The notes: a model not told the origin generated them from the sequence alone. A stretch of DNA of 51,783 nt from Cyanobacteriota bacterium (GCA_040756535.1 JBFLZA010000001.1:1-51783), one strand, 5' to 3'. Numbered from the stretch's first letter, positions 31,234 through 51,783 are shown. A program made the numbers and translations.

Positions 31234-31406
31234 GCTCAATGGCTTTGAAGCAGCAACCAGAGCTTTATTTCTAGAGAAACTTAGGAAATCTAGATTTTTA
31301 TCGAGTTTACCGAACCCGGATTTTTTCAGTTTACCGTACTTTCTATTGAGCCTAAATTCTGGCATGAAAGGTTTCTAGTTGGTTATCAGATTTCGCCATA
31401 TGTTGG

Positions 31407-31805: not shown

Positions 31806-31832
31806 GGGTCGGTATTAACGGTAGAGAGTTTG

Positions 31833-32201: not shown

Positions 32202-32235
32202 TATAGAACCCTCAACCCCAGGACGAATTGACCGC

Positions 32236-33598: not shown

Positions 33599-33604
33599 GG
33601 GAAG

Positions 33605-34911: not shown

Positions 34912-37900
34912 ATGGAAATAGCGGTAAACTTCGAGTTTTGTGATGGAGACTTTGAGCGCGGATTTACTCAAATCAAACTTCAGGTAACTAATGCACAGCG
35001 TAACTCTATACAATTAGAAGCGCAATTACCCCCAATTCCAGAACTTCCAGTTTCCTATCAAATTTGGAAAGATAAATTCGATTCTTTACTGAAGAATAGC
35101 AGAGGCGGTTTTAAAAAAAATCAAGTAACAAATCTTTCCACAGCCGAGTGTTATCAACTCGAGGAAAATTTATGCAATCACCTTCATCAGTGGTTGAACC
35201 CCATCAAGTTACAATTAGAATCCTTATTCCAATTAAGTCCTCCTTCAGAAATTCGTCTAATTATCCACACGCAGAATATAGCAGCAGAAGATACCAAAGA
35301 CATCTTACATCGACTGCCTTGGCAAGAATGGGATTTATTTCCAGAAAATTGCCACTCAGAAGCAGCACTTTGTTTTAATTCTTCTCAACCCAATACCGCT
35401 GCATCCGAACAACCATCAACAACTGGAAAAATTAGAAGAGCTAGAATTATCAGTATCTTTGGAGATAGTGACAATATTGATATTACAGCTGATGAAGAAT
35501 TAATTAATAAATTAAAGAAACGAGGAGCCGAACTGATTCCTCTGCGAGAGCCAAAACGCTCAGAGTTTATAAAACTCTGGGAAGAACCTTGCGATATCCT
35601 GTTTTTCGCCGGTCACAGTGAAACTACCGATAAGGGTCAAACTGGTGGACTTTACATTAATTCTGATGACTATTTAAATCTAGAGGAAATTAGAAAGACT
35701 CTCAGGGCAGCCATTAGCAAGGGTTTAAAATTAGCCATATTCAATTCCTGTGACGGTCTAGGTTTAGCAAGGCAATTAGCGGATTTAAACTTACCCTACA
35801 TTATCGTGTGGCGCTCGGAAGTACCAGATCAGCTCGCCCAAAAGTTTCTCAAATATTTTCTCAGTTCCTACACGCTAGGTCAATCTTTATTTGTAGCTGT
35901 TGCAGAAGCAAGGGCACAACTGAAAGAACTCGCAGACGACCGGGATATTGAAAAGCAACTACCAGGAGTGAGCTGGTTACCAGTTATCTGTCAAAATACA
36001 ACGGAGCCTCCACCAAGTTGGGAAGATTTGGGAGGATTGTCTGGCGAACTTCCTGAGTGTCCTTATCACGGTTTATCTGCGTTTCAGGAAAAAGATGCGG
36101 ACTTCTTTTTTGGTAGGGAGAAGTTTATTGCTTCTTTAGTGGAAGCAGTAAACAGCAAACCGCTAGTTCCTGTAGTTGGTGCTTCTGGGAGTGGAAAATC
36201 TTCTGTGGTATTTGCAGGGTTGATTCCCCGTTTACGAGCTTCTGGGAATGTGGAGATAGTCAGTTTTCGTCCGGGGAAAAATCCGTTTGATGCTTTGGCA
36301 GTGGCGCTAAGCAAATATTGCAAGTCTCTGGTACAAGGACAAACAGAAGCATCAGGAGAAAGGGCTAGCAGGTTGGCGGAACTGGAATTTGAGGTCAACC
36401 TGCGACATGATGAGACAGTATTATGCCATCTTATCGAAAATATTGTTAGTTCTTCAGAATACCACCGTTTGGTGTTAGTAGCAGACCAGTTTGAAGAACT
36501 TTACACCCTCACTCCAGAAGATGAACGTTACAGTTTTTTGAAGGCACTGCTTTTGACAGTAAGAAACACTCCGGCGTTGACGCTGGTGCTGACGTTGCGA
36601 GCAGATTTTTTGGGAATTGTGCTTGATGAGCAACCAATGGGAAAGGCTTTGCAGCAATACTCCCCATTGTTACTGACTCCGATGGACTCTGAGGAATTAC
36701 GAGATGCGATTGAAAAACCAGCTTTAAAAATGAAGGTGGAGCTGGAGGAGGGGTTAACAGGTAAACTTATTAATGATGTGGGGAATCACCTTGGTCGTTT
36801 ACCAATGCTTGAGTTTGCGCTCTCCAAGCTTTGGTCGAAACAGAGAAATTGGTATCTGACGCATCAGGCTTATGAAGAAATTGGCGGTTTAGAAAAAGCC
36901 TTGACCAAACATGCTTCGGAAGTATTAAAGCTGCTATCTAAGGCGGAAAAACAACAAGCCGAACGAGTGTTTATTCAGTTAGTGTGTCCAGGGGAAGGTA
37001 CGGAAGACACCAGGCGTGTTGCTACTTGCAACGAGGTGGGGAAAGAAAATTGGAATTTAGTCAAACGTTTAGCTGATGCGCGTTTACTGGTGACTGGGTG
37101 GGATGAAACTGAGAAAATAGAAACAGTGGAAATCGTCCATGAAGCATTAATTCGAGAATGGGGAACCTTGCGGGAGTGGATAACAACTAACCGTGAGTTT
37201 CGCATTTGGCAAGAAAGGTTCAAGCAAGATGTGCGTGACTGGGAAAATAGTCATCAAAACCCAGAAGCCTTATTGCAAGGAACGCGCCTAGCTGTAGCAG
37301 AAGATTGGTACAAGCAACGAGGAGATGAACTAACACCACGAGCGCGAGATTTTATTACCGCTAGCATTACACGGCGGGAACAGGAGCAACAAAAACAGAG
37401 GCTGAGACGACAGCTAACTATTTTTGGGCTTACTGGTGGTTCCCTGGTAGCCTTGATGCTAGCTGGAGCAGCTTGGTGGCAATGGCAGAATGCACACTTT
37501 AACGAAATAAAAGCTATTAATGTATCAAGTGAAGCGCTTTTAACCTCGGCTCAAGATTTTGAAGCGCTGATAGAAAGTTTGAAGGCATCCAGAAAACTAA
37601 AAGAAACACCAACTTATCTAGTATTTCGTAGACTTCAGGAAAAGGTTGATATCCAAAAGCAGGTTGATATTTTATTACAGGAGGCACTCTATAAAGTTAC
37701 AGAACGCAATCGACTGGAAAAGCATAAAGATGAGGTTACAAACGTTAGTTTCAGTCCTGACGGTAAGATGATTGCCACGGCAAGCAAAGACAAAACCGTC
37801 AAACTCTGGAGTTTGGATGGGAAAGAAATCAAAACCCTCCAAGGGCATCAAGCTTTGGTACAGAGGGTCAGGTTTAGCCCTACAGGAAACAGAATTGCAA

Positions 37901-39576
37901 CAGCTAGTTGGGACGGAACTGTCAAACTTTGGACGAGAGAAGGTAAATTAATCACTACCCTCAAGGAAAATAAAAAAAAGCTTGATAGTGTATATGGTCT
38001 GAGTTTTAGCCCTGATGAAAAAACAATTGCTACTGCTGACGCTGGAGGAAATGTCAAACTCTGGACGAGAGAAGGTAAATTAATCAAAACCTTTAAGGGA
38101 CATGACCAGCCTATCTTGAACCTTAGTTTCAGTCCTGATGGTAATACTCTTGCCACCGCCAGTCAGGATAAAACAGTCAAACTCTGGAACCGGGACGGAA
38201 AACTACTGCGAACCTTGACTGGACATAAAGATTGGGTTTGGAGTGTGAGTTTCAGCCCCAACGGTCAGAAGATTGCTACTGCTAGTAGGGATGAAACTGT
38301 GAAACTTTGGAGCATTGAGGGAAAGGCAATCAGAACCCTAAATGCTCATAAAAATTCGGTAACTAGCGTTAGTTTTAATCCTGATGGAAAGCAGATTGCC
38401 ACCGCTGGTGCTGACAACACCGTCAAAATCTGGAGTGAATCTGGTGAAGAACTTCAGACCTTGAGCGGACATAAAGATTGGGTTTGGAGCGTCAGTTTCA
38501 GCCCTGACAGCAAGATGCTTGTCACTGCTAGCAAGGATGGAACTGCCAAACTCTGGCAATTAAAAGGGAAGAATTATCAAATTCATCAGGCGCATAACAG
38601 CGGAATTTATAGCATAAGTTTTAGTCCTGATGGGAAGGAGTATGCTACTGCTAGTAAGGACAGAACTGTCAAACTTTGGAAGCGTTCAGGTAAATTAATT
38701 AAAACTATCGAAGGGAACGACAGTGAACTCCTGAAAAACCCAGAGACCTGGTTTACTCACGTCAGTTTTAGCCCTAATGGACAAATAATTGCTACCGCTA
38801 CTAGTGATGGAAATGTGATTCTTTGGAGTCGCCAAGGAGAGAAAATTAAAAATTTCAAGGGACACGAACGAAAATGGATCTGGCAGGTAAGTTTCAGTCC
38901 TAATGGCAAGACTTTTGCCACTGCTGGTCATGACGGCACTGTTAAACTCTGGAGCTTAGATGGCAAGCTACTCAAAGCCATTGAGGCACATACAAAAGAT
39001 AAAGATGGGGAAGGGGTTAATAGCGTCAGTTTTAGTCCCGATGGCAAAATTGTCGCCACCGCTGGCTGGGACAAAAAAGTCAAACTTTGGACGAGTGAAG
39101 GTAAACCAATCAAAATCCTTAAAGGACATGAAGATGGAGTTCATAGTGTCAGTTTCAGCCCCGACGGCAAGGTGATTGCTACTGCCAGTGAGGATAAAAC
39201 TGTCAAGCTTTGGACGAGTGAAGGTAAATTCATTAGAACCATTAAAGGGCATGATGCTGGAGTCTTTCGTGTCAGATTTAGTCCAGATGGAAAAGTAATT
39301 GCTACTGCCAGTTTAGATAAGACTGTTAAACTCTGGAGTCTTGACGGTAAGGAACTGAAAACCTACAAGGGACACGATGATTCTGTTTGGAGCCTTAATT
39401 TCAGCCCCGATGGTCATACCCTTGCCTCAGCTGACAATGCCGGAAAATTAATTATGTGGGATTTGGGCTTGGAGTCAAATCAGCTACTGGTTGATGGTTG
39501 CAATTGGGTAGGTGATTATCTGAAAAACAATCCAAAAGTGAGTGAGAGCGAGCGCACTTTCTGTAACGGTAGATGA
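34912..39576 (+). CDS. CHAT protease domain, STAND-type P-loop NTPase, transmembrane helix, WD40 array
   Basis: CHAT His/Cys dyad context: ILFFAGHSE and AIFNSCDGLG. P-loop VVGASGSGKSSVVFAGLIP (about 36178-36204). TM LTIFGLTGGSLVALMLAGAAWWQW (37414-37485). About 14 WD40 units of the form V.SVSFSPDG..IATAS.DKTVKLW. Confidence 0.9.
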   Translation: MEIAVNFEFCDGDFERGFTQIKLQVTNAQRNSIQLEAQLPPIPELPVSYQIWKDKFDSLLKNSRGGFKKNQVTNLSTAECYQLEENLCNHLHQWLNPIKLQLESLFQLSPPSEIRLIIHTQNIAAEDTKDILHRLPWQEWDLFPENCHSEAALCFNSSQPNTAASEQPSTTGKIRRARIISIFGDSDNIDITADEELINKLKKRGAELIPLREPKRSEFIKLWEEPCDILFFAGHSETTDKGQTGGLYINSDDYLNLEEIRKTLRAAISKGLKLAIFNSCDGLGLARQLADLNLPYIIVWRSEVPDQLAQKFLKYFLSSYTLGQSLFVAVAEARAQLKELADDRDIEKQLPGVSWLPVICQNTTEPPPSWEDLGGLSGELPECPYHGLSAFQEKDADFFFGREKFIASLVEAVNSKPLVPVVGASGSGKSSVVFAGLIPRLRASGNVEIVSFRPGKNPFDALAVALSKYCKSLVQGQTEASGERASRLAELEFEVNLRHDETVLCHLIENIVSSSEYHRLVLVADQFEELYTLTPEDERYSFLKALLLTVRNTPALTLVLTLRADFLGIVLDEQPMGKALQQYSPLLLTPMDSEELRDAIEKPALKMKVELEEGLTGKLINDVGNHLGRLPMLEFALSKLWSKQRNWYLTHQAYEEIGGLEKALTKHASEVLKLLSKAEKQQAERVFIQLVCPGEGTEDTRRVATCNEVGKENWNLVKRLADARLLVTGWDETEKIETVEIVHEALIREWGTLREWITTNREFRIWQERFKQDVRDWENSHQNPEALLQGTRLAVAEDWYKQRGDELTPRARDFITASITRREQEQQKQRLRRQLTIFGLTGGSLVALMLAGAAWWQWQNAHFNEIKAINVSSEALLTSAQDFEALIESLKASRKLKETPTYLVFRRLQEKVDIQKQVDILLQEALYKVTERNRLEKHKDEVTNVSFSPDGKMIATASKDKTVKLWSLDGKEIKTLQGHQALVQRVRFSPTGNRIATASWDGTVKLWTREGKLITTLKENKKKLDSVYGLSFSPDEKTIATADAGGNVKLWTREGKLIKTFKGHDQPILNLSFSPDGNTLATASQDKTVKLWNRDGKLLRTLTGHKDWVWSVSFSPNGQKIATASRDETVKLWSIEGKAIRTLNAHKNSVTSVSFNPDGKQIATAGADNTVKIWSESGEELQTLSGHKDWVWSVSFSPDSKMLVTASKDGTAKLWQLKGKNYQIHQAHNSGIYSISFSPDGKEYATASKDRTVKLWKRSGKLIKTIEGNDSELLKNPETWFTHVSFSPNGQIIATATSDGNVILWSRQGEKIKNFKGHERKWIWQVSFSPNGKTFATAGHDGTVKLWSLDGKLLKAIEAHTKDKDGEGVNSVSFSPDGKIVATAGWDKKVKLWTSEGKPIKILKGHEDGVHSVSFSPDGKVIATASEDKTVKLWTSEGKFIRTIKGHDAGVFRVRFSPDGKVIATASLDKTVKLWSLDGKELKTYKGHDDSVWSLNFSPDGHTLASADNAGKLIMWDLGLESNQLLVDGCNWVGDYLKNNPKVSESERTFCNGR

Positions 39577-39599
39577 AAGCCCTTTTGTTTGTTCTCGAC

Positions 39600-40517
39600 C
39601 TAGTTGAATGGAGTTTGGTATCCGGCAAATTCGCTTAAGTAAGCGAGAATAGAAGTGCCACTTTCATCCTGAGAAACCTCATTATTAAGCAGCAGCCTGG
39701 ACACCCCTTTTTCGCCACGTAGATGGGCAGCTGCAAGAATTCCGGATTTGGTGACCAATACTCCTCCTCGTTCTTGTCCGATAAATTCTTCTATGGAGCG
39801 TCCATTCAGTTGATTTTTGAGCAGAACCCACTTGTATTGCATAGCCTCTTGAATAGCTATTTCTTGCACATTGTTCTTATTATTCAGAAAATCTTCCTTG
39901 CTATTAACTCCATGTTTTCCTGTCCATGTACCGCGCCAATAATTCTTGTCAACACCCGGTTGTCCGTAGTAAGAATTGGCTTGGTAGTACCCAAGGTCAA
40001 TAAGTAGAGCTTCCCCAAATTGGTACTTGCCGATAAAGCCCCATAGATTATTAGTATTGTTGTAAGTTGGATTTCCGGGTCCTGTTTCCCTCTTTGCAAG
40101 TGCGTTCAAAAAGTCGTTGTAACTTCCCTTGCTAGAACCCGGCGTGGGCTTAGGCTGATTAGCTCCAGGTATAACAAGCACCATCCCAGCTTGGAGTTGA
40201 GTATGGTCAGGTCCAATCACATCGTGATTAGCCTCATAGATTTTTCTCCACGACGCTTCACTGCCATCTCCGTAAAATTTCTCAGCAATCAGTGATAAAA
40301 AGTCACCAGGTTGTACGGTATATCGAGTCAGATTTGTCTGTTTTGCTTGTGCGATATAACCGCTTTTGTTGAAGACACTGTAAGCGTAGCTAGATTCAAA
40401 TGGTAAAAATGATGTGGTTAAAGCTGAACACACCACCAGTCCTATAGCATAAAGTTTGTCTATTTTTCGTGGCAATGATTTTGTTTTTGGCAACAGAGTC
40501 ATGGAACTTTTTACCAA
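39600..40517 (-). CDS. secreted LysM domain protein with lysozyme/transglycosylase-like C-terminal region (tentative)
   Basis: N-terminal hydrophobic segment LYAIGLVVCSALTTSFLPF. LysM: YTVQPGDFLSLIAEKFYGDGSEASWRKIYEANHDVIGPDHTQLQAGMVLVIPG. The C-terminal GKYQFGEALL...ILAAAHLRG resembles muramidase-like folds. Only the LysM domain is confidently recognised. Confidence 0.75.
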   Translation of the reverse strand: MVKSSMTLLPKTKSLPRKIDKLYAIGLVVCSALTTSFLPFESSYAYSVFNKSGYIAQAKQTNLTRYTVQPGDFLSLIAEKFYGDGSEASWRKIYEANHDVIGPDHTQLQAGMVLVIPGANQPKPTPGSSKGSYNDFLNALAKRETGPGNPTYNNTNNLWGFIGKYQFGEALLIDLGYYQANSYYGQPGVDKNYWRGTWTGKHGVNSKEDFLNNKNNVQEIAIQEAMQYKWVLLKNQLNGRSIEEFIGQERGGVLVTKSGILAAAHLRGEKGVSRLLLNNEVSQDESGTSILAYLSEFAGYQTPFN

Positions 40518-40595
40518 ATAAGGTTTGAGGTTTACAAGAATGTTTCTTTTGATTGTGTAATTTTCTGTTGAACGGAAGCAAGGAGAAGCTTAAGA

Positions 40596-40803
40596 TAATT
40601 GCTTGTTTGCCCTGTTTCTACTTTTAAATAGATTCAAGTCCAATCGACCTATACACTTGTGTGAGCAAAATGGAAGTTTACTCCTAACAAATACATTATG
40701 AAACCCTTATATATCAAGGTTCACAAGAAATTGCGTTTCTTTCATGTTTCACTTGCAGCGTGCCGCTAGATAGTGGCTCACATCTTGCATAGCGACACTC
40801 CCA
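40596..40803. repeat. copy 1 of a roughly 210 bp dispersed direct repeat
   Basis: TAATTGCTTGTTTGCCCTGTTTCTACTTTTAAATAGATTCAAGTCCAATCGACC...GTGCCGCTAGATAGTGGCTCACATCTTGCATAGCGACACTCC aligns along its whole length with 51087-51297. Differences are scattered substitutions and small indels. Confidence 0.85.
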
Positions 40804-40968
40804 TCACAGTGGGAACGCCGCCATAGAATAAGACGGCTTGGTAAATGAGGAGCCGTTTCCTCCATGCCTAGTGTCTGGACTGCCTTGCATCAGGTGTATA
40901 CCATCGAAATGAAAACCGCTATAGGTTTTTCATTGTCCCTATAGCTTGTTTGTTATGTTTCCCTACTG

Positions 40969-43900
40969 TTACTGAGATTGGCGTCGAGAAAGCTCTTCTG
41001 CTTTTCGTTGGTTTGCCTGGGCTGCTTGTTGATCTCCCAGACGGGTATAAGCTAGTGCTCGGTTAGTGTATGCCAAGGCATTACTAGGAGCGAGTTCGAT
41101 CGCCTTGTTGTAATCTGTGATCGCCTGTTGAGAGTTGCCCTGATGGTAGTAAGCTATTCCGCGATTGATATAAGCATTAGCATAAGTCGGATTAAGACTA
41201 ATTGCCTTACTACTATCAGCGATCGCTTTGGGGTAATCTTTCTGCTCGTTATAGGCGGCTGCCCGATTGCTGTAAGCTTTATCACTATTGGGATTGAGAG
41301 CGAGCGCTTGACTATAGTTGCTGATTGCTTGTTGGTAATTTCTTTGTCTGTGGTAGGTTAAGCCCTGATTGATGTAGACATCAACTGAGTTGAGCTTGCT
41401 CGCCTGCTTGCGATCGCTAGGGGCTTGCCTATAGTTATTCTGTCCGTTGTTAGACGAAGAGTTTGGAGACGGAACATTCTGAGGACGGACTGAGGCATTA
41501 GCAGGAGCAGATGAGCTTGGTGTATCCTGTCCATTGTTAGACGAAGGAGTTGGAGACGGAACATTCTGAGCCTGATTGTTAGGATTAGTGACGGTTGGCA
41601 CAGGGGTTTCGTCAGCGATAGTAGTTGTTTGCTTCTGTTTATTAAAGTCGTCACAAAGACGCTTATCGCTCTCATCGAGATTGGGATTCTTCTGTAGATA
41701 GTCCTGCACTAGATAGCAAATTTGCTGCCTCAGCTCCTCCACCTCACCAACTTGCCATACCCTAACCTGACCATCCGTTCCAAAGGTTGCTAGTTGCTTG
41801 CGGTTAGGGCTGAATTTTACTCTCTTAATAGCCTCTTGTTGCATTTCAAATTGTTTAAGTTCGTTGCCTGAGGTGTCCCACAGCTTGATTAAATTCTCCT
41901 CTTTCTCTGATGAACCAATGGTTACTAGTTTATTGCCGTCCGGGCTGAACACTATACTATAGATATTCTGTTGTCGCGTTGGGAATTGGTTGAGCAGGTT
42001 GCCCTGAATATCCCATAGCTTGATCTTGCCGCCCTCTCCACCAGTTGCTAATTGTTTGCCGTCTGGACTGAACGCCACATAAGCTCTTTCTTGCTGTATT
42101 GGGAATTCACCCAGGTTTTTACCATCAGTGTCCCACAACTGGGCGTTATCGTTTTCCCTTGAGGTAGTTGCCATTCGAGCGCCATCACTGCTGAACGCCA
42201 CGCTATAGATTTTCTGCTGGTTTTGGAATTTGTCGAAGTCGGTGTTCAAAATAGAACGAGGCACGAATTCGTCATCTTTGAAATCCCACAGCTTGATCGT
42301 CCCTTCGTCCTTTCCACGGGTTGCCAGTAGATTTCCTTCAAGACTAAACGCTATAAGATCAATATTTTTTTGCTCTGTTTTTATCTCCATTAGAGCGGGC
42401 TTTTTACCTGATAAGTCCCACAGCCTAACGATGTCGTCATCTTCAACAGTTGCCAGTTGATTATTTTTGGGACTGAATTCGACGAGCTTGGTTCTTCTTT
42501 TATAAAGTTCGGGGTTCGAGGTGTTCTTCCGCCTGATATTACCGTCATCTTCAATGTTCCACAGCTTAACTGTGCTATCCTTTCCGATGATTGCTAGTAC
42601 CTTGCCGTCACGACTAAACGCCACACTCTTGACATCCCTTTCGTGTGCTGGTGATGGGGCAGGTTTATTGCTCGATATGTCTAATAGCCTGACAGTGCCA
42701 TCGTCTCCGCCGATCGCCAGTAGCTTAGCGTTATGGGGATGGAACGCTAAGCTATTGATGTTTTCTTGCTGTGTCTGGAACTGTGTCTGGAATTGGTTGA
42801 TCGGATCGCCCAACTTCTTCAACAGCGTAACTGTGCCGCTCTTTCCACCGATTGCTAGTACCTCGCCGTCAGGACTAAACGCCAAATCTATTGCTATACT
42901 GTTGGGCTGCATTGGAATTTTCTTGAGCAGCTTACCCGATTGATCCGATAGATTCACCATACTGCCGCCCTTGACAAGCGTTGCCAACTTACCATCCTTG
43001 GGACTATATGCCAAGCTCTCAATAAACCCTAGGCTCGTTGGATATTGTCTGATGGATAGGGAATTGTTTTCCCTCTTGAACCTCATCGTATTTTTGTCAA
43101 TGTCAACTATCCTAGCAACGCCAACTGCATCAACGGTTATTAGCTGGCTACCGTCAGGCATGAACATTATGCTCTCGATACTCTTTTTCAGGGGGTGGGT
43201 GTAGTCGAGCTGCTTACCTGAGGAGGTATCCCAAAGACTAACCTCACCGTTTTTTGTAGCGATTGCTAAGACTTGGCTATCTTTAGGGCTGAATACCACG
43301 CTATTGACATCTTTTCGATCCGTTGAGAATAGATTTCCTTTACTCGTTGGTAGGTTGATTGACTCGCCCGACTTGGCGTTCCACAGCCTGACTGTGCCGT
43401 TCCCTGCAATAGTCGCTAGTTTCTCACCGTTAGGACTAAAGGCCACGCTCTTAACTGTTATGTCTTCGATACTCCCTTCAAGCGGTTCGATTTTGGCAAT
43501 TTCTTGGGAATTAGAAGTCTCCCACAGCCTGACTGTGTAGTCCATTCCAAGGGTTGCCAATTGCTTACTCTCAGAGCTGAACGCCATGCTAAATATATAC
43601 TCTGACTGCTTTGGCTGCTGCTGGGACTCTAAAGGGAGGGGTTGTCCTGGATTCCCATCAAACTTGCTATTTTTAATGTTCCATAGCTTGACCGTGTTAT
43701 CCTGTCCACCAATTGCCAGCTTGGTGTTATCTTTGAAGGCCACGCTATAGACATTTTTTTGATCGGTGGGTTTTAGACTGCACTTTTTGCCGTCGATGTC
43801 CCACAGTATGACTCTGTCGCTCTCTCCAACGATTGCCAGTAACTTGTTGTCAGGACTGAACGCCACATCATAGATATTCTCGCCCTTGTTGAGCTGGTCG

Positions 43901-46900
43901 CAGCTCTGAGTATTCAAAGTTGTTTTACTTGGCTTGAACTGCCAGTTGTCCTGGAAGGAGCCAAAAGGGTTCCCAAAAAATAGCAACCAGTTAAAAGGTT
44001 GGCTGATGTCGTTCTTGTTCTGAGCGACCCTGTCCCATAGCTTGATTGTGCGCTTCCCTTTGTTGTCCTCGTTAATCGTTACCAGAAACTTGCTGTCAGA
44101 AGTAAATTCCACATCACGGATTATCTGTTGCTGACTTTGCTTTGAGGTAAGGATCTCTTTACCAGAAGCGGTATCTACCGTGTTGTTCTCGTTAATTTTC
44201 CACAGCTTGACCGTACCGTCTTCTGCACCAGTTGCCAGTTGCTTGCCATCATTAGTGAACGCCAAGCTATAGACCAGCTTTTTTGTCTCTGCCGAAAAAA
44301 GCTGGATTTGTTTCGGTTGTTGGGGTTTGCTAGTATCCCAGAGCCTAACACTGCCTCTACCTCCAACGGTTGCTAGTAAATTCCTTTTAGGATTGAACGC
44401 TATCTGATAGACACTCCCTCGATCTAGCTGTAGTCGGTTGCGTTCTTTCACTGTATAAAGAACCTTGGACAGCGTTTCTCTCACTTGTGCCAGCTCTTCG
44501 TTTGGTTTGAGCAGCCCCCAAAAAGATGAACCCTTAAGGTTTTTTGTGGCTCGCAAAATATCGATAGCTGCTTCTAAATCACGATTGGATTTCAAATTGG
44601 CTTCTGCGGATTGTTGGAAAGTACGGATTTGCTCTATTTGTTTTTGCCGCCCATTGATTAAAGCCCAGAAAGTTAGCCCACTCAAGCCCAGCATAACTGC
44701 GATCGCAATCACCCACCGCAAATTAGTATTTCTACGTCTTCGCCAAACGCTTTTCTGGACAAACTCAGTTTCTACCTGGTTAAACCAGTTGTCTTTCTCA
44801 GATGTGAGTACCTGTTTTAAGACATCGAGATAGGGGTCAGCATTCCAAAGAAACCGTGCCTCTTGCTTACTTTTCCACTCAATGGCCGCTGGTGTCAGCC
44901 GCCGTTGCAGAGGTAAATCTTCCTGCTCCTCCTGCTGCCATTTCTGTAGCTTATCCCACCCACGTACTAAGGCATCGTGAGCGGGTTCAACGCATTCAAC
45001 TTCGTCGGTATTGGCTGGCTGTAGCGGGTCGGGAATCGTATATTTTACTAGAAGTCGCTCAAAAACGAAGCTGTTAATGACATTATCGGCTCGATTATTT
45101 TCGTCCGGAGCGGCATACGTCCATTCTAATTTCACCAATTTGCGGCGAGAAATCTCACCTCCTTCTAGAGAAATCATCCGAAGCATGACATTGCGGATTG
45201 TTCGCGCATACGCATCTTTTTCTTTTGGATTGTTCTCTAACAAACTCTGGTATACTTCATTTGCCTTTTTGGTAACTGACTGAGTTACGCCACCCAACTC
45301 GTTATAGTCCGCCCAAGTGATGGTGCGATCAGGAATCTCGCCCTTGTTCAGCGCGTTTATGAATCGCGTTGCTAACTTGCGATAAAGTTCACTCAACGCA
45401 AACGATAGCAAGGGTAATGCTCCTGGCATATCTGCAACTTCATGAATTAGTTGTTGAACTAGAGTACGGTTGTTTGGTTTATCCGAGCCAAATTGAATAG
45501 CTTTGACCGCCGCAGGAGCCTCGATCACTTCTTGCAGCTCCTCCCGCGTCATGGGTGGTACGATAAATCGTGCTGCATTCCAAATACGTTCCTCAAATTG
45601 CTGTTTCGATTCAACACCTTTTGATTGATTAGGCTGTTGAGCGTTCAGTAGCGATGCTAAATTTTTATGCTTTTTGAGTTCAGCTTCAACGCTTTCTCGC
45701 AGTTGGGGTTCAAAATCTAACCGCAACGTGAGAACAAGGTGTAATCTGCCTGAATACTTTTCCAGTTGCTCTGATAGTCGTCGCAGAAACTGCTCTCGCT
45801 CAGGCTGATCGCGGCATTGCGTCACTAACTCTTCAAATTGGTCAATTACCAGCAGGAATTTTGTCCCAGTAGGGATGGTATCCAGATTTGTCCCTTCGAG
45901 TGCATTTTCCAAAGTCTTTGCAGGTGACTCACCAGGACGTATCGGCTTTAGAATCTCCCACTTTTCGTGTTTGTGACGATGAGTTTGACCGTCTTGGAGC
46001 GATACCAATACCTGCGACTGCTGTGCTTCTTCTGGCGATCGCTTGAGATGGGGAATCAAACCTGCTTTGACTAGACTTGACTTACCAGAACCGGACGCAC
46101 CTAAGACAACAGTTAGGGGATGTTCGCACACGCGATCACAAAGTTCTTCAATTAACTTAGTTCTCCCAAAGAACAGTTGGCTATGCTCTTCCTCGTAGGA
46201 TTCTAAGCCTCGGTAGGGATTGCTTTCTTTGGTATCCTCCAGAGTAGGAGCAGGAGGCAGTTTCGTTTTGTCGAAGTGTTTTGTGAGAAAAACGTACACA
46301 CCCTTGTCGTGTTTTTCGTCTACTATCCATAACCCAGGAGTTTGACGTTTGTTGCGTTGAGCTGTTTCTAGCTCGATCTGGTATCGCACATACTGATACA
46401 GTTCATCGGCAGTAATGATTCCATCGCCTGCTGGCTTGTCATCTTTAGCTGGCGGATATGTATCGGCGGCTTCATCTCTTAACGCCTTCATCAAAGCAAT
46501 AGCAAAGGGGGAGTGCTCTGCATTTCCAAAATCACGGTTATTCTCCAGTACCATCTCATCAGCAGCCGTCTGATCGTGTGCTGAAGAAGTGATAACTTGC
46601 CAGGCCGGATCGTTAATGAACAAGTCAAAATTATCCCTGAAAATCTCCCTGACATGACCAAACTGTCGTGTATTAGACCACCGGAAAGCACCTGAATAAC
46701 AGCAGTCCAGAATAATCAAACAGTGACGGCAGGGTAGTTCCGCCAGTACTTTCCTCAACTGGCTCATGGATAGATATGTATTTCTATTCATAACCCCAGG
46801 TTTGGCATCCTGCGGAATCAGGAAACCCTGAGGACCGTCCTCGCTGTTGAGAGCAATGCCGTGTCCTGCAAAATAGAACAGGAGGCGATCGTCTGAACCA

Positions 46901-47169
46901 ACGGTTTCTTTGAGAGTCTTCAACAGAGCGTTGAGGTTTTCTAAGGTTGCATTCTCATCTAGCCACGCCTTGTTCTCAATCTGACTGGCTGGCTTTGATG
47001 GCGAAATTAGCGTATATTCGTGTTCACTCTCCAAAATTTCAGCGATTTTCTGGGCATCGTTAACTGCGGTTCGCAGTGGAGGAACTCCTGAGTGGTAATC
47101 ATTAATACCGATGACCACAGCATAGCTGTTCGCAAAGCCTGATTCTGATTGAGAAGTTGGTGAAGTCAT
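40969..47169 (-). CDS. caspase (peptidase C14) domain, STAND-type P-loop NTPase, transmembrane helix, WD40 array, low-complexity linker, TPR repeats
   Basis: Caspase dyad context: YAVVIGINDY, LLFYFAGHG, IILDCCYSG. P-loop VVLGASGSGKSSLVKAGLIP (46081-46101). TM LRWVIAIAVMLGLSGLTFWALI (about 44658-44721). Many divergent WD40 units. C-terminal TPRs (AISNYSQALALNPNSDKAYSNRAAAY...). Confidence 0.9.
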   Translation of the reverse strand: MTSPTSQSESGFANSYAVVIGINDYHSGVPPLRTAVNDAQKIAEILESEHEYTLISPSKPASQIENKAWLDENATLENLNALLKTLKETVGSDDRLLFYFAGHGIALNSEDGPQGFLIPQDAKPGVMNRNTYLSMSQLRKVLAELPCRHCLIILDCCYSGAFRWSNTRQFGHVREIFRDNFDLFINDPAWQVITSSAHDQTAADEMVLENNRDFGNAEHSPFAIALMKALRDEAADTYPPAKDDKPAGDGIITADELYQYVRYQIELETAQRNKRQTPGLWIVDEKHDKGVYVFLTKHFDKTKLPPAPTLEDTKESNPYRGLESYEEEHSQLFFGRTKLIEELCDRVCEHPLTVVLGASGSGKSSLVKAGLIPHLKRSPEEAQQSQVLVSLQDGQTHRHKHEKWEILKPIRPGESPAKTLENALEGTNLDTIPTGTKFLLVIDQFEELVTQCRDQPEREQFLRRLSEQLEKYSGRLHLVLTLRLDFEPQLRESVEAELKKHKNLASLLNAQQPNQSKGVESKQQFEERIWNAARFIVPPMTREELQEVIEAPAAVKAIQFGSDKPNNRTLVQQLIHEVADMPGALPLLSFALSELYRKLATRFINALNKGEIPDRTITWADYNELGGVTQSVTKKANEVYQSLLENNPKEKDAYARTIRNVMLRMISLEGGEISRRKLVKLEWTYAAPDENNRADNVINSFVFERLLVKYTIPDPLQPANTDEVECVEPAHDALVRGWDKLQKWQQEEQEDLPLQRRLTPAAIEWKSKQEARFLWNADPYLDVLKQVLTSEKDNWFNQVETEFVQKSVWRRRRNTNLRWVIAIAVMLGLSGLTFWALINGRQKQIEQIRTFQQSAEANLKSNRDLEAAIDILRATKNLKGSSFWGLLKPNEELAQVRETLSKVLYTVKERNRLQLDRGSVYQIAFNPKRNLLATVGGRGSVRLWDTSKPQQPKQIQLFSAETKKLVYSLAFTNDGKQLATGAEDGTVKLWKINENNTVDTASGKEILTSKQSQQQIIRDVEFTSDSKFLVTINEDNKGKRTIKLWDRVAQNKNDISQPFNWLLFFGNPFGSFQDNWQFKPSKTTLNTQSCDQLNKGENIYDVAFSPDNKLLAIVGESDRVILWDIDGKKCSLKPTDQKNVYSVAFKDNTKLAIGGQDNTVKLWNIKNSKFDGNPGQPLPLESQQQPKQSEYIFSMAFSSESKQLATLGMDYTVRLWETSNSQEIAKIEPLEGSIEDITVKSVAFSPNGEKLATIAGNGTVRLWNAKSGESINLPTSKGNLFSTDRKDVNSVVFSPKDSQVLAIATKNGEVSLWDTSSGKQLDYTHPLKKSIESIMFMPDGSQLITVDAVGVARIVDIDKNTMRFKRENNSLSIRQYPTSLGFIESLAYSPKDGKLATLVKGGSMVNLSDQSGKLLKKIPMQPNSIAIDLAFSPDGEVLAIGGKSGTVTLLKKLGDPINQFQTQFQTQQENINSLAFHPHNAKLLAIGGDDGTVRLLDISSNKPAPSPAHERDVKSVAFSRDGKVLAIIGKDSTVKLWNIEDDGNIRRKNTSNPELYKRRTKLVEFSPKNNQLATVEDDDIVRLWDLSGKKPALMEIKTEQKNIDLIAFSLEGNLLATRGKDEGTIKLWDFKDDEFVPRSILNTDFDKFQNQQKIYSVAFSSDGARMATTSRENDNAQLWDTDGKNLGEFPIQQERAYVAFSPDGKQLATGGEGGKIKLWDIQGNLLNQFPTRQQNIYSIVFSPDGNKLVTIGSSEKEENLIKLWDTSGNELKQFEMQQEAIKRVKFSPNRKQLATFGTDGQVRVWQVGEVEELRQQICYLVQDYLQKNPNLDESDKRLCDDFNKQKQTTTIADETPVPTVTNPNNQAQNVPSPTPSSNNGQDTPSSSAPANASVRPQNVPSPNSSSNNGQNNYRQAPSDRKQASKLNSVDVYINQGLTYHRQRNYQQAISNYSQALALNPNSDKAYSNRAAAYNEQKDYPKAIADSSKAISLNPTYANAYINRGIAYYHQGNSQQAITDYNKAIELAPSNALAYTNRALAYTRLGDQQAAQANQRKAEELSRRQSQ

Positions 47170-47295
47170 AATTTCTGAGGTCGATCGCGCACTGGGTTGA
47201 CTTGTTGAAGCAACGGGAGGGTTTCCTGGCGGCTGAGGCGATTGAGATGAAGTGGTTCTCTTGCCTGTATTCCCCTCTGGAGCAATCGGGTTGGG

Positions 47296-50200
47296 CTAAG
47301 GAGGGGGAGGCGTTTTTGGAGGAGTTGTCGGACCTGAATAACCGGGAAAAGCCCGCGCCACAGCCCTTGCTAAGGCATCTAAACCAGCGGGATGTCGGAA
47401 GTATGATAAGTGATCGCAAGCCACTTGATTCTGAATGTAAGCCGCAGGCGATCGCTCCTCTGGTACACTCACAATGCTCTTCACAGTTACTGCAATATCA
47501 TTAGCTTCCTTCATGAAAGGAAACTCAATGGCTCGACGCCAGGTTCGTTGAAGAGCCGCCTGAAGTCGATTAATTGCTTCTTCTTGTTGAGGAATCAGCG
47601 AAGTGTTTCCAGCAATAATACTGTACGGACACTGCGGATCGGCACAGTCCTTCAACTCCTGGAGAAATTTCGATTTGGTAGGATGCATCTCATCCAGGTT
47701 GACATCCTTCTCCTCAATCCATGCCACCAGATCGGCTAGTACTTTCGCAGGGAATACCACAGAAGACAAACCATTTAATCCAGCCGCAAGCGCGAAAGTC
47801 GCCAAGTCTTGCACGACAGCCCAGGGTGAGCCAGCATTGGGAGTCCCCAACATAATTAGATGTTGTACGACTTGATTGCCCTCCCACTGCTCAATAAAGC
47901 TGCGAGAAACCAATCCGCCCATCGAGTGAGCCACGATATGCAGCGTCTTACCATGATTGGGTTTCAATCCGACAGCAGCCAGTTTATCCTTGAGTTGCTT
48001 GCCAAGTTCTTTAATCGGCGTGTTCAGGCTTTCATAATCAAATGTCAGCACTAAGTCATAAATATCAGCGAGGACTTGGGATTGTCCATTCGCCACCACT
48101 TTGGCTTGTTGCACACTCGGCACCATACTTTCCGTATCGCCGATAATGCCGTGAATGTAGAGGGCAATGCATTGGGCTTTCGCTACCTCTGCTTTGATCT
48201 GCTGCTCGTCTTCCTCATAGCTGACAGTTCTATCCTCAGCAACACGAGCAATTCTGAGCTTAGGATAGGGAGACTCATGTCCCAGGTTTTCGTATATTAC
48301 CTTTTGGAAGTAGATTCGGATTGCACCACCGAGGCTGCGTTTCTTCTCGCCTGATGTTTGCTCACTATCTAGTGTCGGTATCCGTTCTATCCGAATCTCG
48401 GTTTTACCGTCCTTTCCTTTCCCCTGTCCCAAAGGCAGCCAGAACTCCCCATCGTAGGCAACTGGAAGAATGTATTCATCCTGAGCAATAGACTTGTTAA
48501 CCGACAGAACCAATGGGTTTTCCGGAGTCACAGTCTCGATAGTCTCACGGTCATTCACCTGCAACTCCAGCACGCTTAACCCTGAATCAACTCCTCGGCT
48601 AGCGGTGAACTGGAAGGGCTGCGTGTAGTCACCCAACATTGGCGGCAAAGTGGGACTGCCTATATCTCGGGTTGATGGTGGAACAGAGGATAGGCGAACA
48701 CTTGCACGTAAACCGATGTGGGGCTGAATTGTCACACCAAAGGAGAGGTCAGTAGGAGCTTGGTGATTGAGTGGGACCGCATCTTTAGGTCGAACCGTTG
48801 TGATGCTAACTTGCCTGGTTACCCAATCATCGATCTCCTCAACAACACCAAATTGTCGGGTCTGAATTTGATACATCAACAGATTAAGTGTATTAAGGCG
48901 ACTGGGACACTCTCGGCTCTCACCACTCGACTCAACACTCCGAGATGACAAATCATCCTGACAAAGAAGGGTGGCATCAAACTCTGCCGTACTGACGAGC
49001 AGCTTGAAGACATCCTGATATTCGGTAACTCCCTTTTTCCAAATCTTGTCTGGCACACTGGCGGGGATATCATCCCTTATTTTTCGGTTGCCGTTCCAAA
49101 TAGCGGCATCAACTTCTTCTCCTGGCTCAATCCACAAACCACCCTTGTAGGACAGTTCGCCCTGAGGGAATAAAGGTGGAACATTCACAGAATAGTCTTC
49201 CGCTACATCCAGAATGGCGCAGAAAAGCCGTTGTTCGTAAGTGTTGGTCAGCTTAACCCGGAATGTCGGTTGATGCCATTCATCGTTCCTGTACTCATAT
49301 TCCAGCCGCAGATGGGGTTCTTTGACCTCCTCGCCCTCGCCATTGCGATAGATCTGAACCTTGACCGCATTGGCAGGAATTTGGCTCTCTGGATTTGCCA
49401 AATCAATCGTTGTTGTCCAACGGGCGATGTGTTCCAGATTCTTCACAGCCCTGAAGGCTTTGTCGTATCCTTTCAGCGGTTCTACCAACGGGCGATCGTC
49501 TGATGGTTTAGTAATTACATACTGCCTATCCTTTGCCAAAAGACGATACTGAGCTTGATTCAGTGTGTTTTCTTCCCGAATATAAAGCGAGGGTTTCTCA
49601 CCGAGACCTACTCTCTGAAGTTGTTGCCGCACCTGTTCTAATGCGTCTGAATCTCCTTCGAGATAAACTCCAATGGTCGGAGGCGGCAGACTGAGAGCGA
49701 TCGCTCTCAGTCTGGTATCTTCTGTCAGGTTTGGAGGCTCTTGGGTGAACTCGACAATACTCCTATCGGGTAGCACCTCAATAACCTCCGCTTCACCAAC
49801 TGCCTCAGACACTTGTCGCATTTGCTCTGGAGTACTGCCTTGAGAATAAAGCGCAAGTTTAATAGGAATATTGCTAATTTTGGGAAAACCATGTATGGCT
49901 CCCCCATCAATCTCCCAATTTGTGCCATTGTGTCTCAAGGTAAAGAAAGGTTCGCGAGGTTTAATAATGTCTGAGCCACCTAGAAATGATAAATTATCTA
50001 AATCTTCGGAATTATTAGCTTCTAATCGCGGAGTTTGATCTTTGATACGGCTGCGGACACGGGAACTAACTTCCTTGAAAAATTCGCGGTAGGAGAGAGT
50101 ACTATTAGTTTTGTTAAGCGAATCCAACAAAAAGTAAGAAAAAGCACCTCTCGTTTTACCATCACCGGAATACTCACTTGCCTTTTCCCGATCCTCGCAA

Positions 50201-50811
50201 GCTGCCAACAGTACATGCCGTCCCTCTGGCAAGTCCCAGCTATCTCCGTGCTTTTGAGAGCGGAGTGCTACATCATTAGCAAAAATGAATTCTTCAATCT
50301 TTCTGGGTCGTGTATCTGCGGGAGTATGGCGAACTTTCTGCTTCTGCTCCACATCTCTGGTGCCAGAACCAGAATGGCAGCTATCCAGTACTATGACAAT
50401 GTGTGGATTGCGTTCAGCGACTTTAGCAATCAGATAGCGCAATTCCTTATTGGCTAAGTCCCTGGTGCTGGTGCGGCTATCCCAACATACGAGCGTTTCC
50501 AGCTTACCGTCTCGCTCTAAATATGAAAACTCTGGAGAGGCAGGTTCCTGCGAACCGTGCCCACAGAAGTAGAACAGCACAACATCATCTTTACCCGCCT
50601 GAGTTAGGTGTTTTTCAAAACTATCGATAACTGCTTGCCGGGTAGCTTCTGCATTCCGTAGTGTCTTTATGTTGCCGTGTTGGCTACTATCAACCCGTGT
50701 TTTCAAATAGTCTTCTATCGCATTAATATCGTTAACGCAGCCATCCAGTTTGCGAACTGGTGCAGGATAATCATCGATGCCAACAAGAAGTGCGTAGAGG
50801 TTGCGAGTCAT
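47296..50811 (-). CDS. caspase (peptidase C14) domain fused to a large unknown middle region and a C-terminal alpha/beta-hydrolase (lipase/esterase-like) domain
   Basis: YALLVGIDDYPAP, VLFYFCGHGS and IVLDSCHSGSG form the caspase dyad context. The nucleophile elbow HIVAHSMGGLVSR (47911-47940) is a GxSxG motif. Start trimmed to the ATG at 50811 (MTRNLYALL). Same strand as the 40969..47169 gene and 126 bp upstream of it. Confidence 0.85.
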   Translation of the reverse strand: MTRNLYALLVGIDDYPAPVRKLDGCVNDINAIEDYLKTRVDSSQHGNIKTLRNAEATRQAVIDSFEKHLTQAGKDDVVLFYFCGHGSQEPASPEFSYLERDGKLETLVCWDSRTSTRDLANKELRYLIAKVAERNPHIVIVLDSCHSGSGTRDVEQKQKVRHTPADTRPRKIEEFIFANDVALRSQKHGDSWDLPEGRHVLLAACEDREKASEYSGDGKTRGAFSYFLLDSLNKTNSTLSYREFFKEVSSRVRSRIKDQTPRLEANNSEDLDNLSFLGGSDIIKPREPFFTLRHNGTNWEIDGGAIHGFPKISNIPIKLALYSQGSTPEQMRQVSEAVGEAEVIEVLPDRSIVEFTQEPPNLTEDTRLRAIALSLPPPTIGVYLEGDSDALEQVRQQLQRVGLGEKPSLYIREENTLNQAQYRLLAKDRQYVITKPSDDRPLVEPLKGYDKAFRAVKNLEHIARWTTTIDLANPESQIPANAVKVQIYRNGEGEEVKEPHLRLEYEYRNDEWHQPTFRVKLTNTYEQRLFCAILDVAEDYSVNVPPLFPQGELSYKGGLWIEPGEEVDAAIWNGNRKIRDDIPASVPDKIWKKGVTEYQDVFKLLVSTAEFDATLLCQDDLSSRSVESSGESRECPSRLNTLNLLMYQIQTRQFGVVEEIDDWVTRQVSITTVRPKDAVPLNHQAPTDLSFGVTIQPHIGLRASVRLSSVPPSTRDIGSPTLPPMLGDYTQPFQFTASRGVDSGLSVLELQVNDRETIETVTPENPLVLSVNKSIAQDEYILPVAYDGEFWLPLGQGKGKDGKTEIRIERIPTLDSEQTSGEKKRSLGGAIRIYFQKVIYENLGHESPYPKLRIARVAEDRTVSYEEDEQQIKAEVAKAQCIALYIHGIIGDTESMVPSVQQAKVVANGQSQVLADIYDLVLTFDYESLNTPIKELGKQLKDKLAAVGLKPNHGKTLHIVAHSMGGLVSRSFIEQWEGNQVVQHLIMLGTPNAGSPWAVVQDLATFALAAGLNGLSSVVFPAKVLADLVAWIEEKDVNLDEMHPTKSKFLQELKDCADPQCPYSIIAGNTSLIPQQEEAINRLQAALQRTWRRAIEFPFMKEANDIAVTVKSIVSVPEERSPAAYIQNQVACDHLSYFRHPAGLDALARAVARAFPGYSGPTTPPKTPPPP

Positions 50812-51086
50812 CTTAATTTTTCCTAGTGATACATCCACGTATAGCGTTTTCAAACAAGACAAGAAAAATTGTTGTATTTTTCTTGGTTAGGAAAATTGAA
50901 TAATTGCAAGTTTCTTCATTACCTGGAGGCAGTTGGCTTCCTGTTGATAAACTAGACGCACTCGCCGGACAATTACCTGCATCACCGTTACTGCATACTG
51001 TAGGGATGCATAATCGCTGCCAAAGACTAAACGGTTGCCCTCCCAAAAAAGCATGGGCGTTTGTGAGGGAAATTTACTGTGGACTT

Positions 51087-51297
51087 TAATTGCTTGCTTA
51101 TCCTGCTTCTACTTTTAGATAGATTCAAGTCCTATCGACTTATACACTTGCGTGAACCAAATGGAAGTTCCTTGTAAGAAAGACATTTTAAAGCCCTTGT
51201 ATATCAAGGTTCACAGGAAATTGTGTTTCTTTCATGTATGTTTCACTTGCGGTGTGCCGCTAGATAGTGGCTGACATCTAGCATGGCGACACTCCTC
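51087..51297. repeat. copy 2 of the roughly 210 bp dispersed direct repeat
   Basis: Aligns with 40596-40803 in the same orientation. It lies upstream of the caspase-hydrolase gene start. Confidence 0.85.
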
Positions 51298-51405
51298 TCA
51301 CTGAACTGCCTTTTTCTTAAAGGTGGCTCCAGATATGAAACCTGTGCGAATATCGTCACTAGCAAGTAATCCATCAAAGTTTGTTGCGTCTTCATCGTGA
51401 GTCAT
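51298..51405 (-). CDS. possible 35 aa small ORF
   Basis: ATG at 51405-51403 preceded by AAGGAGAA with about 5 nt spacing. Product: MTHDEDATNFDGLLASDDIRTGFISGATFKKKAVQ. The stop abuts the right edge of repeat copy 2. It is below the ORF-track length threshold. Confidence 0.3.
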   Translation of the reverse strand: MTHDEDATNFDGLLASDDIRTGFISGATFKKKAVQ

Positions 51406-51442
51406 GATGTTCTCCTTTGTACAAGACATGAATCACGTCAAT

Positions 51443-51783
51443 CTATAACCCCGGCTGGTCGGATGGATGATGCAGCTTTTCGATTTGGGATTCAGCTACA
51501 TTAACCGATTCATCATCTTGTCCAACAGCAATTTCTTGCTCAATATCTTGCGTCTGAATTGTTTTAACCTTGCTCAGCCTATCAGAAGCTGGGAGGTCTC
51601 CCTGAGCTTCGTCGTAGAGAGCGAACCAAGGCAGCCCATATTGCGTGTAGAGTTGAGCGGTGATTGGTGTTGGCGGAGGTTCGAGGTTAGTCAACTCCTG
51701 GTACTGCTCACTGTTGATGATGTGTACGAACACAGAGCCGTCGTTTTCAGTATCCCAAGTGTCGATTCCGTAGGGGTCAGGGT
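51443..51783 (-). CDS. hypothetical protein, 5' end outside the window
   Basis: The reading frame stays open from 51733 to the window edge (...PDPYGIDTWDTENDGSVFVHIINSEQY...), so the annotated GTG start is probably internal. No motif recognised. Confidence 0.4.
   Translation of the reverse strand, partial: PDPYGIDTWDTENDGSVFVHIINSEQYQELTNLEPPPTPITAQLYTQYGLPWFALYDEAQGDLPASDRLSKVKTIQTQDIEQEIAVGQDDESVNVAESQIEKLHHPSDQPGL

Follow-up and report, generated by a model that had tools for sequence, protein, structure and literature searches.

Do three caspase-fold protease genes that lie close together in the genome of a cyanobacterium form one functional system with the cell-wall-binding protein encoded between them? 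The question is posed by a 51,783-nt stretch of DNA from Cyanobacteriota bacterium (GCA_040756535.1 JBFLZA010000001.1:1-51783; hereafter the window), in which the region 34912-50811, carrying four large genes designated g1 to g4, was analysed. A preliminary description of this region, made from the sequence alone, had read the four genes as one unit of sensor, switch and protease or lipase effectors, and as the strongest candidate in the window for an undescribed system. According to our analysis, the 16 kb is prone to recombination and contains three independent entities next to one another. We consider it probable that g4 and g3 constitute a protease-effector conflict module, that g1 is a separate sensor-protease, and that g2 is an ordinary secreted cell-wall enzyme. 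Caspase homologues of cyanobacteria have been tied to programmed cell death for two decades without a defined substrate, partner or trigger. The g4-g3 pair is a specific partnership among many paralogues, a constant caspase-lipase effector with a variable membrane-anchored STAND sensor, and is very widespread, with 1,779 clusters of proteins and no fewer than 587 loci in genomes.

An open reading frame (ORF) check of the window located the four genes at the positions given in the preliminary description. Pfam searches agreed with the domains named there (CHAT, nSTAND1, WD40, TPR, LysM, Peptidase_C14, and alpha/beta hydrolase); membrane segments were assigned from hydrophobicity profiles. The His/Cys dyads, said to be kept in all three proteases, were found in the translations (AGHS/SCDG in g1, AGHG/DCCYSG in g3, and CGHG/DSCHSG in g4) and were conserved in 24, 46, and 75 homologues, respectively, so that the failure of alignment which had been named as a ground for rejection did not occur. 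The general assignment to the caspase/STAND conflict systems of multicellular cyanobacteria also holds. Three details can be added: g1 is encoded on the other strand, in convergent orientation to g2; g2 resembles lysozyme in its C-terminal half; and g4 and g3 share a reading frame. The mechanical ORF of g4 extends beyond the ATG to a TTG at 50862, and the database gene call for g2 is 300 aa long, from the ATG at 40502. The coordinates of all features are collected in Table 1.

Relatives of g4 were collected by a genome scan with one genome per species. A 25-sequence alignment used as the query worked, while g4 alone gave no confirmed relative. The best 80 of the at least 587 loci were retained with 10-kb flanks, every ORF of these 80 loci was searched with each domain of g1 to g4, and adjacency was counted on the 72 species-representative loci having at least 1.5 kb downstream. 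The clusters of the g4 family, taken at E ≤ 1e-5, were conserved over the full length of the protein. A caspase-nSTAND1 gene was present directly downstream of the g4 homologue, on the same strand and with a gap of −63 to 1360 bp, in 39 of the 72 loci; counting any position up to 10 kb away raises the number to 49. The placement of the partner was strongly asymmetric towards the downstream side. The pairing was detected in cyanobacteria and at least three further lineages: Sericytochromatia (L002), Boseaceae (L077), and, in reverse order, Planctomycetota (L057). Identity matrices of g4 and of the caspase-STAND part of its partner, compared over 40 adjacent pairs, were correlated with a Mantel r of 0.73, a value reached in 0 of 2000 permutations. 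A g1-like CHAT gene occurred within 10 kb of a g4 homologue in only 3 of the 80 loci and a g2-like LysM gene in 2. The pairing, together with the rarity of CHAT and LysM neighbours and the unrelated contexts in which g2 homologues are found (see below), indicates that the conserved unit consists of g4 and g3 only. From the sensor-switch-protease-lipase unit proposed earlier, the part formed by g3 and g4 is thus upheld by adjacency across phyla, by fusions and by congruence, and the inclusion of g1 and g2 is not.

At least nine proteins hold both halves of the module in one chain. A g4 protein followed by a g3-type protein was found in P0058, P0361, P0362, P0368, P0372, P0373, and P0395, all of these except P0058 being recovered with the g4 middle region against 1.84 billion representatives. 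In P0058, the hydrolase continues via a Ser/Thr/Pro-rich linker into the caspase-nSTAND1 part, and the order in P0395 (3416 aa) is caspase, middle, hydrolase, caspase, STAND, WD40, TPR. Other orders occur in P0366 (3279 aa; caspase-STAND-caspase-middle-hydrolase-WD40) and in P0389 (2271 aa; caspase-STAND-middle-hydrolase). The latter has no separate g4 caspase, a hint that both roles can fall to a single caspase. In the window itself, the region from the ATG of g4 (50811) to the stop codon of g3 (40969) is a single frame of 3,281 codons, with a TAG at 47296-47298 as the sole internal stop.

The composition of the module varied between loci. Among L009, L015, L044, L045, L048, and L064, several had two tandem caspase-STAND-WD40 genes behind one g4, and L015 carried a truncated second g4 copy (13786-15846; caspase and middle region without hydrolase) between g4 and the sensor gene. 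A divergent gene of ~950 aa was observed just upstream of the g4 homologue in L037 (6575-9412), L044 (4908-7805), and L051 (6566-9418). Its nSTAND1-like NTPase is nearer to that of g1, its caspase match is weak, and it may be a recurrent neighbour.

The N-terminal part of g4 matched Peptidase_C14 (PF00656) in Pfam at 3.1e-23 (83 bits vs. a cut-off of 21.4), and residues 6-284 aligned with complete metacaspases at 8e-19 in a PDB profile search. The C-terminal part is a hydrolase of the DUF7379/PGAP1/LCAT type (1.3e-13; 51.8 bits for DUF7379 vs. a cut-off of 33), which aligned weakly with small lipases in the PDB profile search. The ~580 residues between these two domains matched no Pfam family. 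An AlphaFold2 model of moderate quality (mean pLDDT 68, pTM 0.42) comprised the caspase domain, beta-rich domains at residues 290-620 and 660-870, and an alpha/beta fold from residue 870. Foldseek matches to this model were GSU0716 and metacaspases (probability 1.00), MALT1 caspase-Ig3, and the lipase BlEst2; the MALT1 alignments were long and may extend past the caspase domain. Run with the full-length model of moderate quality, this search returned caspase, lipase, and MALT1 matches only and gave no fold assignment for residues 286-870. The hydrophobicity profile revealed no membrane segment in g4, which we take to be soluble.

In the 75 homologues of g4, the caspase dyad H85 and C145 was at least 90% conserved, and the conserved residues of the hydrolase included the H887-G888 oxyanion motif, S963 in the AHSMGG elbow, D1105, and H1134. 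Three arginines, R715, R739 (followed by a conserved G740), and R825, were likewise conserved in at least 90% of these homologues and sit in low-pLDDT loops of the AlphaFold2 model, N-terminal to the hydrolase. Their conservation and modelled position are suggestive only, and make R715, R739-G740, and R825 plausible candidate sites for Arg-directed cleavage of the metacaspase type.

The g3 protein matched Peptidase_C14 (PF00656) at 1.4e-19 (71 bits vs. a cut-off of 21.4) and nSTAND1 (PF20703) at 5.6e-88 (297 bits vs. a cut-off of 27). Among 46 homologues, the AGHG and DCC dyad contexts were at least 90% conserved, and the P-loop GASGSGKSS and the Walker B motif LLVIDQFEEL were conserved too. 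A transmembrane (TM) segment between the STAND and WD40 parts was detected in 40 of the 46 g3-type partners. Lys and Arg residues flanking this segment averaged 5.7 on the N-terminal side vs. 2.4 on the C-terminal side, with the N-terminal side higher in 39 of the 40. By the positive-inside rule, this bias places the caspase-STAND part in the cytoplasm and the WD40/TPR part outside it; g3 is thus predicted to be a membrane-anchored STAND receptor with WD40 propellers and TPR on the far side of the membrane. A low-complexity linker rich in Asn, Gln, Ser, and Pro separates the WD40 array from the TPR repeats. Within this linker, two 48-nt direct repeats (41436-41483 and 41523-41570; 90% identity, 87 nt apart) encode a duplicated QNVPSP...SSNNGQ.

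Comparison with the closest relative of the pair, locus L081 from an independent sample, showed g4 and the caspase-STAND part of g3 to be nearly unchanged and the WD40 array to be replaced. In blastn, DNA identity was 95% over 50826-44702, absent over 44701-41572, and 93% over 41571-41219. The 95% block starts just upstream of the g4 start codon and ends at codon 822 of g3, in the TM helix. By domain, the g3 proteins were 94% identical in the caspase, 97% in STAND, and ~20% in WD40. The same pattern was seen in other pairs of loci: L014 and L017 were 93% identical in g4, 91% in caspase-STAND, and 34% in the post-TM part, and the corresponding values for L045 and L078 were 97%, 71%, and 37%. 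An effector that stays constant while its sensor is exchanged, as in these alignments, is what one would expect of a receptor following targets that vary.

Caspase/alpha-beta-hydrolase pairs on STAND or WD40 sensors have already been described. [quoted passage not shown] In the pair characterised in 2025, LcCaspase activates the LcHydrolase zymogen by cuts at two R↓G sites, and proteases of the LcCaspase type occur in fusion with sensors of the WD40 and STAND kinds (Evans et al., 2025; PMC12642450). In view of these two papers, the term "undescribed system" in the preliminary description was an overstatement. In the published module, an Arg-directed caspase-fold protease comes in obligate linkage with a hydrolase of the lipase-like type, STAND and/or WD40 sensors are attached on the side of the protease, and multicellular bacteria are enriched among the hosts. 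The g4-g3 pair resembles it, the caspase being fused to a triad-bearing hydrolase in g4 and the sensor partner being either adjacent (39 of 72 loci) or fused. In contrast to LcHydrolase, a stand-alone zymogen of ~33 kDa, the g4 hydrolase is the C-terminus of a 1171-aa protein with an intact metacaspase domain and ~580 aa of beta-rich sequence. The g3 sensor protein differs from the LcCaspase-LcHydrolase arrangement in bearing a second caspase, a TM helix, and a predicted outward WD40 array. The g4-g3 module is mainly cyanobacterial, whereas the caspase/hydrolase pair is distributed in Actinobacteria and Pseudomonadota.

Single components of the locus have counterparts in other descriptions. 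The nSTAND1 group was defined by Kaur et al. (2021; PMC8195603), and a 2026 survey reported Apaf-1-like cyanobacterial STANDs with an N-terminal caspase (PMC13581612). Like g1 and g3, these proteins have an N-terminal protease, a central STAND, and C-terminal repeats; they are described as single-protein sensor-effectors, and we did not find in these descriptions a caspase-hydrolase partner, fusions, or a TM helix between the NTPase and the propeller. A 2020 review of orthocaspases (PMC7475262) covers proteins with a Peptidase_C14 p20 domain, including TM-anchored forms with presumed external WD40, for which initiator and executioner roles were speculated; no mention of lipase/esterase hydrolase fusions or of a conserved gene pairing was found in its text. 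The EACC1-caspase system (Kaur et al., 2020) is also a two-gene, membrane-associated, caspase-based system. Membership of g4-g3 in it was rejected: the NF047832 model ("caspase, EACC1-associated type") gave 78 bits for g3 and 53 for g4 vs. a cut-off of 140, and no small single-TM gene of the EACC1 type was seen upstream of g4 on inspection by eye, where no ORF had a length suggestive of an EACC1 protein and the longest on the minus strand was 96 aa with no obvious hydrophobic stretch. The metazoan apoptosome with its initiator/executioner caspases and the type III-B CRISPR SAVED-CHAT to PCaspase cascade (cited in PMC12642450) are alike in logic only, in that a sensor protease activated by oligomerisation acts on a second caspase-fold protein. 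The g4-g3 pair differs from both in having nSTAND1 rather than NB-ARC, no CARD/Death adaptor or cyclic-nucleotide signal, and a fused hydrolase as the effector, and the cascade is here only proposed. In a literature search that left most subscription journals outside its scope, no description was found of the ~1,150-aa caspase/beta-domain/hydrolase protein, of its partnership or fusions with caspase-nSTAND1-TM-WD40 proteins, or of sensor swapping, and nothing was found on DUF7379 and related terms.

Conserved adjacency, fusions, a shared frame, intact catalytic residues, a TM segment with charge bias, and sensor swapping are the observed features; from them we infer, by analogy, a mechanism for the module in which every enzymatic and biochemical step is conditional. 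Binding of a cue by the variable outward WD40 array would lead to nucleotide-dependent oligomerisation of the STAND module, and the resulting proximity would activate the N-terminal caspase of g3. This caspase would cut g4 after R715, R739-G740, and R825, in the flexible loops ahead of the hydrolase, and may also activate the g4 caspase as a second tier. The freed hydrolase would attack membrane lipids or another ester substrate, resulting in growth stop or death, an outcome that would correspond to abortive-infection or programmed-death logic. If true, this would extend the protease-gated effector logic of other bacteria to a two-caspase arrangement, add an outward-facing STAND receptor to that logic, and bear on the origin of apoptosome-like signalling. 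The module offers two catalytic cysteines, one catalytic serine, the candidate Arg sites, natural fusions, and natural sensor swaps. Its interest is less that it surprises than that, being common and clearly defined, it gives experiments a good place to start.

A bolder version, which we put forward only as a tentative possibility, is that g3-g4 acts as a transmembrane apoptosome-like death switch. Interchangeable outer WD40 propellers would sense an external or envelope cue (phage contact, kin/non-kin signals, or wall damage), and the STAND-bound initiator caspase would activate the executioner caspase of g4, which would then free its own lipase. Such a two-tier cascade would be the bacterial equivalent of signalling by initiator and executioner caspases. 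The in-frame TAG might, in such a switch, set the ratio of fused to separate products.

Several points weigh against a conflict module of the kind we favour. No caspase-STAND gene was present within 10 kb in 23 of the 72 g4 loci, which means that g4 may also act alone or with a distant partner, and the congruence of g4 with its partner could come from shared vertical descent. The candidate cleavage sites in g4 are guesses from conservation and a model with a pTM of 0.42, the outward placement of the WD40 array is derived solely from hydrophobicity and charge bias, and homology of the g4 hydrolase to LcHydrolase is at most putative. PADLOC named no defence system, returning only a generic candidate "caspase" model (PDLC02987), HEAT-ARM_XIII, and weak mad3, mad8, and LmuA matches. 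Finally, the conservation of g4, at 46-65% identity between orders of cyanobacteria, is unusually high for a defence gene.

This conservation, and the location of g4 on the chromosome in most genera of filamentous forms, would suit a different role, which we regard as rather unlikely: that g4-g3 is a real unit not directed against invaders, a protease pathway serving signalling or development (regulated cell death, envelope stress, or membrane-lipid remodelling) responding to an extracytoplasmic or neighbour-cell cue. The predicted outward sensor is in line with such a pathway, unlike the sensors of the Avs/NLR type, which bind phage proteins in the cytoplasm, and a membrane-bound initiator and a cytosolic executioner orthocaspase have been proposed in programmed cell death (PMC7475262). 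However, the wholesale swapping of sensors on near-identical backbones is what one expects of receptors that variable targets place under diversifying pressure, the module adjoins integrases and transposase remnants, and its nearest characterised relatives are anti-phage (PMC12642450).

A further reading concerns the TAG between g4 and g3. The occurrence of one frame with a single TAG implies either that an ancestral fusion was split and the split kept, or that the stop is partly read through. It is improbable, in our judgement, that the module is here a broken fusion gene, with a TAG nonsense codon in a polypeptide of ~3,280 aa and g3 poorly or not expressed, or that low-frequency read-through of the TAG yields both products. 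This would be consistent with the presence of one in-frame TAG only, with the existence of intact fusions, and with the properties of the 42-codon spacer, which has no other stop, can be aligned to the linker translated in P0361, a fused relative, and shows, compared to L081, four substitutions of which three are synonymous in the shared frame. Four substitutions are, however, too few to show coding constraint. L081, differing by ~5% in DNA, has the same TAG and the same spacer, so neither an error of sequencing nor a lesion of very recent date accounts for the TAG. The start ATG of g3 stands where P0361 has Thr, and most species encode two separate genes, with the range of gaps given above. 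Neither a promoter-like nor a terminator-like site was detected in 47170-47298, a weak test in which scan counts were at chance level.

As for g1, Pfam matches were obtained to CHAT (PF12770; 5e-9, 36.4 bits vs. a cut-off of 24) and nSTAND1 (PF20703; 1.8e-114, 384 bits vs. a cut-off of 27), the latter with an intact Walker A (GxSGxGKSS) and Walker B (hhhhDQxEE). The segments G234-H235-S236 and S279-C280-D281-G282, containing the dyad H235/C280, were invariant in 24 homologues. The CHAT module of g1 gave 1,427 matches, in which its partners were nSTAND1, CHASE2, TPR, NACHT, TIR, and PsbP-like domains; such varied partners fit a self-contained single-gene sensor-protease. By its sequence, g1 is a separate CHAT-nSTAND1-TM-WD40 sensor-protease outside the g4-g3 module.

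The g2 protein has an N-terminal signal-like segment in the hydrophobicity profile and a LysM domain (4.9e-8 in Pfam), and its C-terminal domain (aa 131-296) matched phrog_27932, "baseplate hub subunit and tail lysozyme", at 1.9e-14. A sequence search of g2 against PDB gave LysM-level matches only. Homologues with 65-72% identity have unrelated neighbours, e.g., GGDEF, TPS, or glycosyltransferase genes. By its domain content, g2 would be an ordinary secreted cell-wall enzyme with LysM and a lysozyme-like domain. In many Nostocales, the C-terminal domain is also found by itself, without LysM, as a protein of ~240 aa.

We therefore consider it very improbable that all four genes are one system with the LysM protein as its cell-wall-linked component; this reading is already largely refuted by the neighbourhood survey. 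It draws on the physical closeness of the genes and on a ~215-bp direct repeat found upstream of both g2 and g4, which could mean shared regulation. Further, in one other locus, L004, a gene resembling g2 lies 2 kb upstream of a g4-g3 pair, and the order integrase-g1-g2 is retained in L082 and L083. These two are near-identical contigs and the only ones with this order (g1 90% and g2 78% identical to those of the window), and the confinement of the synteny to near relatives is explained by shared ancestry; their integrase is only ~61% identical in protein to that of the window. The repeat, for its part, gave no sign of an RNA family or of a stable fold, g1 runs on the other strand and converges on g2, and both g1-like and g2-like genes are rare near g4 homologues. 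The clustering of three protease architectures with a cell-wall-binding protein, to which meaning had been attached, thus carries none, and the four-gene neighbourhood, whose conservation had been suggested as a check, is not co-conserved. We had also considered L082 and L083 as evidence that g3-g4 is absent beside g2; this was dropped because both contigs break off inside an inserted ORF. This ORF, judged by eye to be transposase-like, reaches with its C-terminal end the position equivalent to window 40690, inside the first repeat copy (L082 1-279; L083 1-349).

Pure chance clustering in variable regions, with no functional link between g3 and g4, is like the four-gene unit poorly supported and has a negligible probability: caspase/STAND/WD40 paralogues are numerous (1,427 matches for the g1 CHAT module and 1,779 for g4) and the region is rich in mobile elements, but 39 of 72 loci, from different phyla, keep order and strand, the asymmetry towards the downstream side is strong, fusions are repeated and independent, and g4 and g3 lie here in one reading frame.

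Table 1. Location of the genes, domains, repeats, and mobile-element features in the window.
Feature	Position	Strand	Description and basis
g1	34912-39576	+	1554 aa; CHAT-nSTAND1-TM-WD40
g1 CHAT module	34912-36051	+	Pfam
g1 nSTAND1	36061-37263	+	Pfam
g1 TM helix	37414-37470	+	aa 835-853; hydrophobicity
g1 WD40 repeats	37702-39495	+	14 repeats; Pfam
g2	39600-40517	-	305 aa; secreted LysM, lysozyme-like C-terminal domain
g3	40969-47169	-	2066 aa; caspase-nSTAND1-TM-WD40-TPR; putative sensor/switch protein
g3 caspase	46315-47130	-	Pfam Peptidase_C14
g3 nSTAND1 NTPase	44770-46218	-	Pfam
g3 TM helix	44656-44712	-	aa 820-838, single; hydrophobicity
g3 WD40 array	about 41740-44472	-	Pfam
g3 TPR repeats	40987-41391	-	four repeats; Pfam
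g3 swapped sensor segment	41572..44701	-	aa about 823-1866; WD40 array, without nucleotide homology to L081
TAG and spacer joining g4 and g3	47170..47298	-	42 codons, Pro/Ser/Thr-rich; translation
g4	47296-50811	-	1171 aa from ATG; caspase/beta-rich/alpha-beta-hydrolase; putative constant effector protein
g4 metacaspase-type domain	49957-50811	-	aa 1-285; Pfam, PDB profile search
g4 beta-rich domains	48202-49956	-	aa 286-870, two domains; without Pfam match; AlphaFold2 model
g4 lipase-like alpha/beta hydrolase	47332-48201	-	aa 871-1160; Pfam, PDB profile search, Foldseek
Repeat copy A	40594..40810		~215-bp direct repeat; downstream of g3, 77 bp upstream of g2
Repeat copy B	51085..51305		same repeat; ~275 bp upstream of g4 ATG
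Tyrosine integrase	30208-31233	+	Pfam
Tn3 DDE transposase fragment	33112-33555	+	Pfam
Second tyrosine integrase	33605-34240	-	Pfam
Serine recombinase	3582-5120
Multi-HTH protein	5162-6046
Integrase-like gene	16792-18237	-
C5 cytosine methylase fused to ParB-N	18434-21487

The two copies of the repeat were 85% identical over 216 bp in blastn, are 10.49 kb apart, and bracket the g4-g3 block, each copy being located upstream of a minus-strand gene (A of g2, B of g4). The repeat could be a scar left by recombination when the block was inserted, or a regulatory region common to both genes. It had no match in two metagenome scans and was not present in the fetched loci, save for a partial copy A in L082 and L083. 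An Rfam search at E ≤ 0.1 across 39000-51783 gave no match. Its interpretation as a structured regulatory RNA was dropped, there being no Rfam match and the copies folding no better than shuffled sequences (z = −1.4 and −1.1).

Remnants of mobile elements at 30208-34240 lie between housekeeping genes and g1, directly upstream of the latter. Three large ORFs elsewhere in the window, 6099-8009 (636 aa), 9371-12901 (1176 aa), and 13566-16676 (1036 aa), had no Pfam or PHROG match. They are located within 3582-21487, a part of the window which, with its recombinase, integrase-like, and methylase genes, has the look of a mobile element or of a defence-type region.

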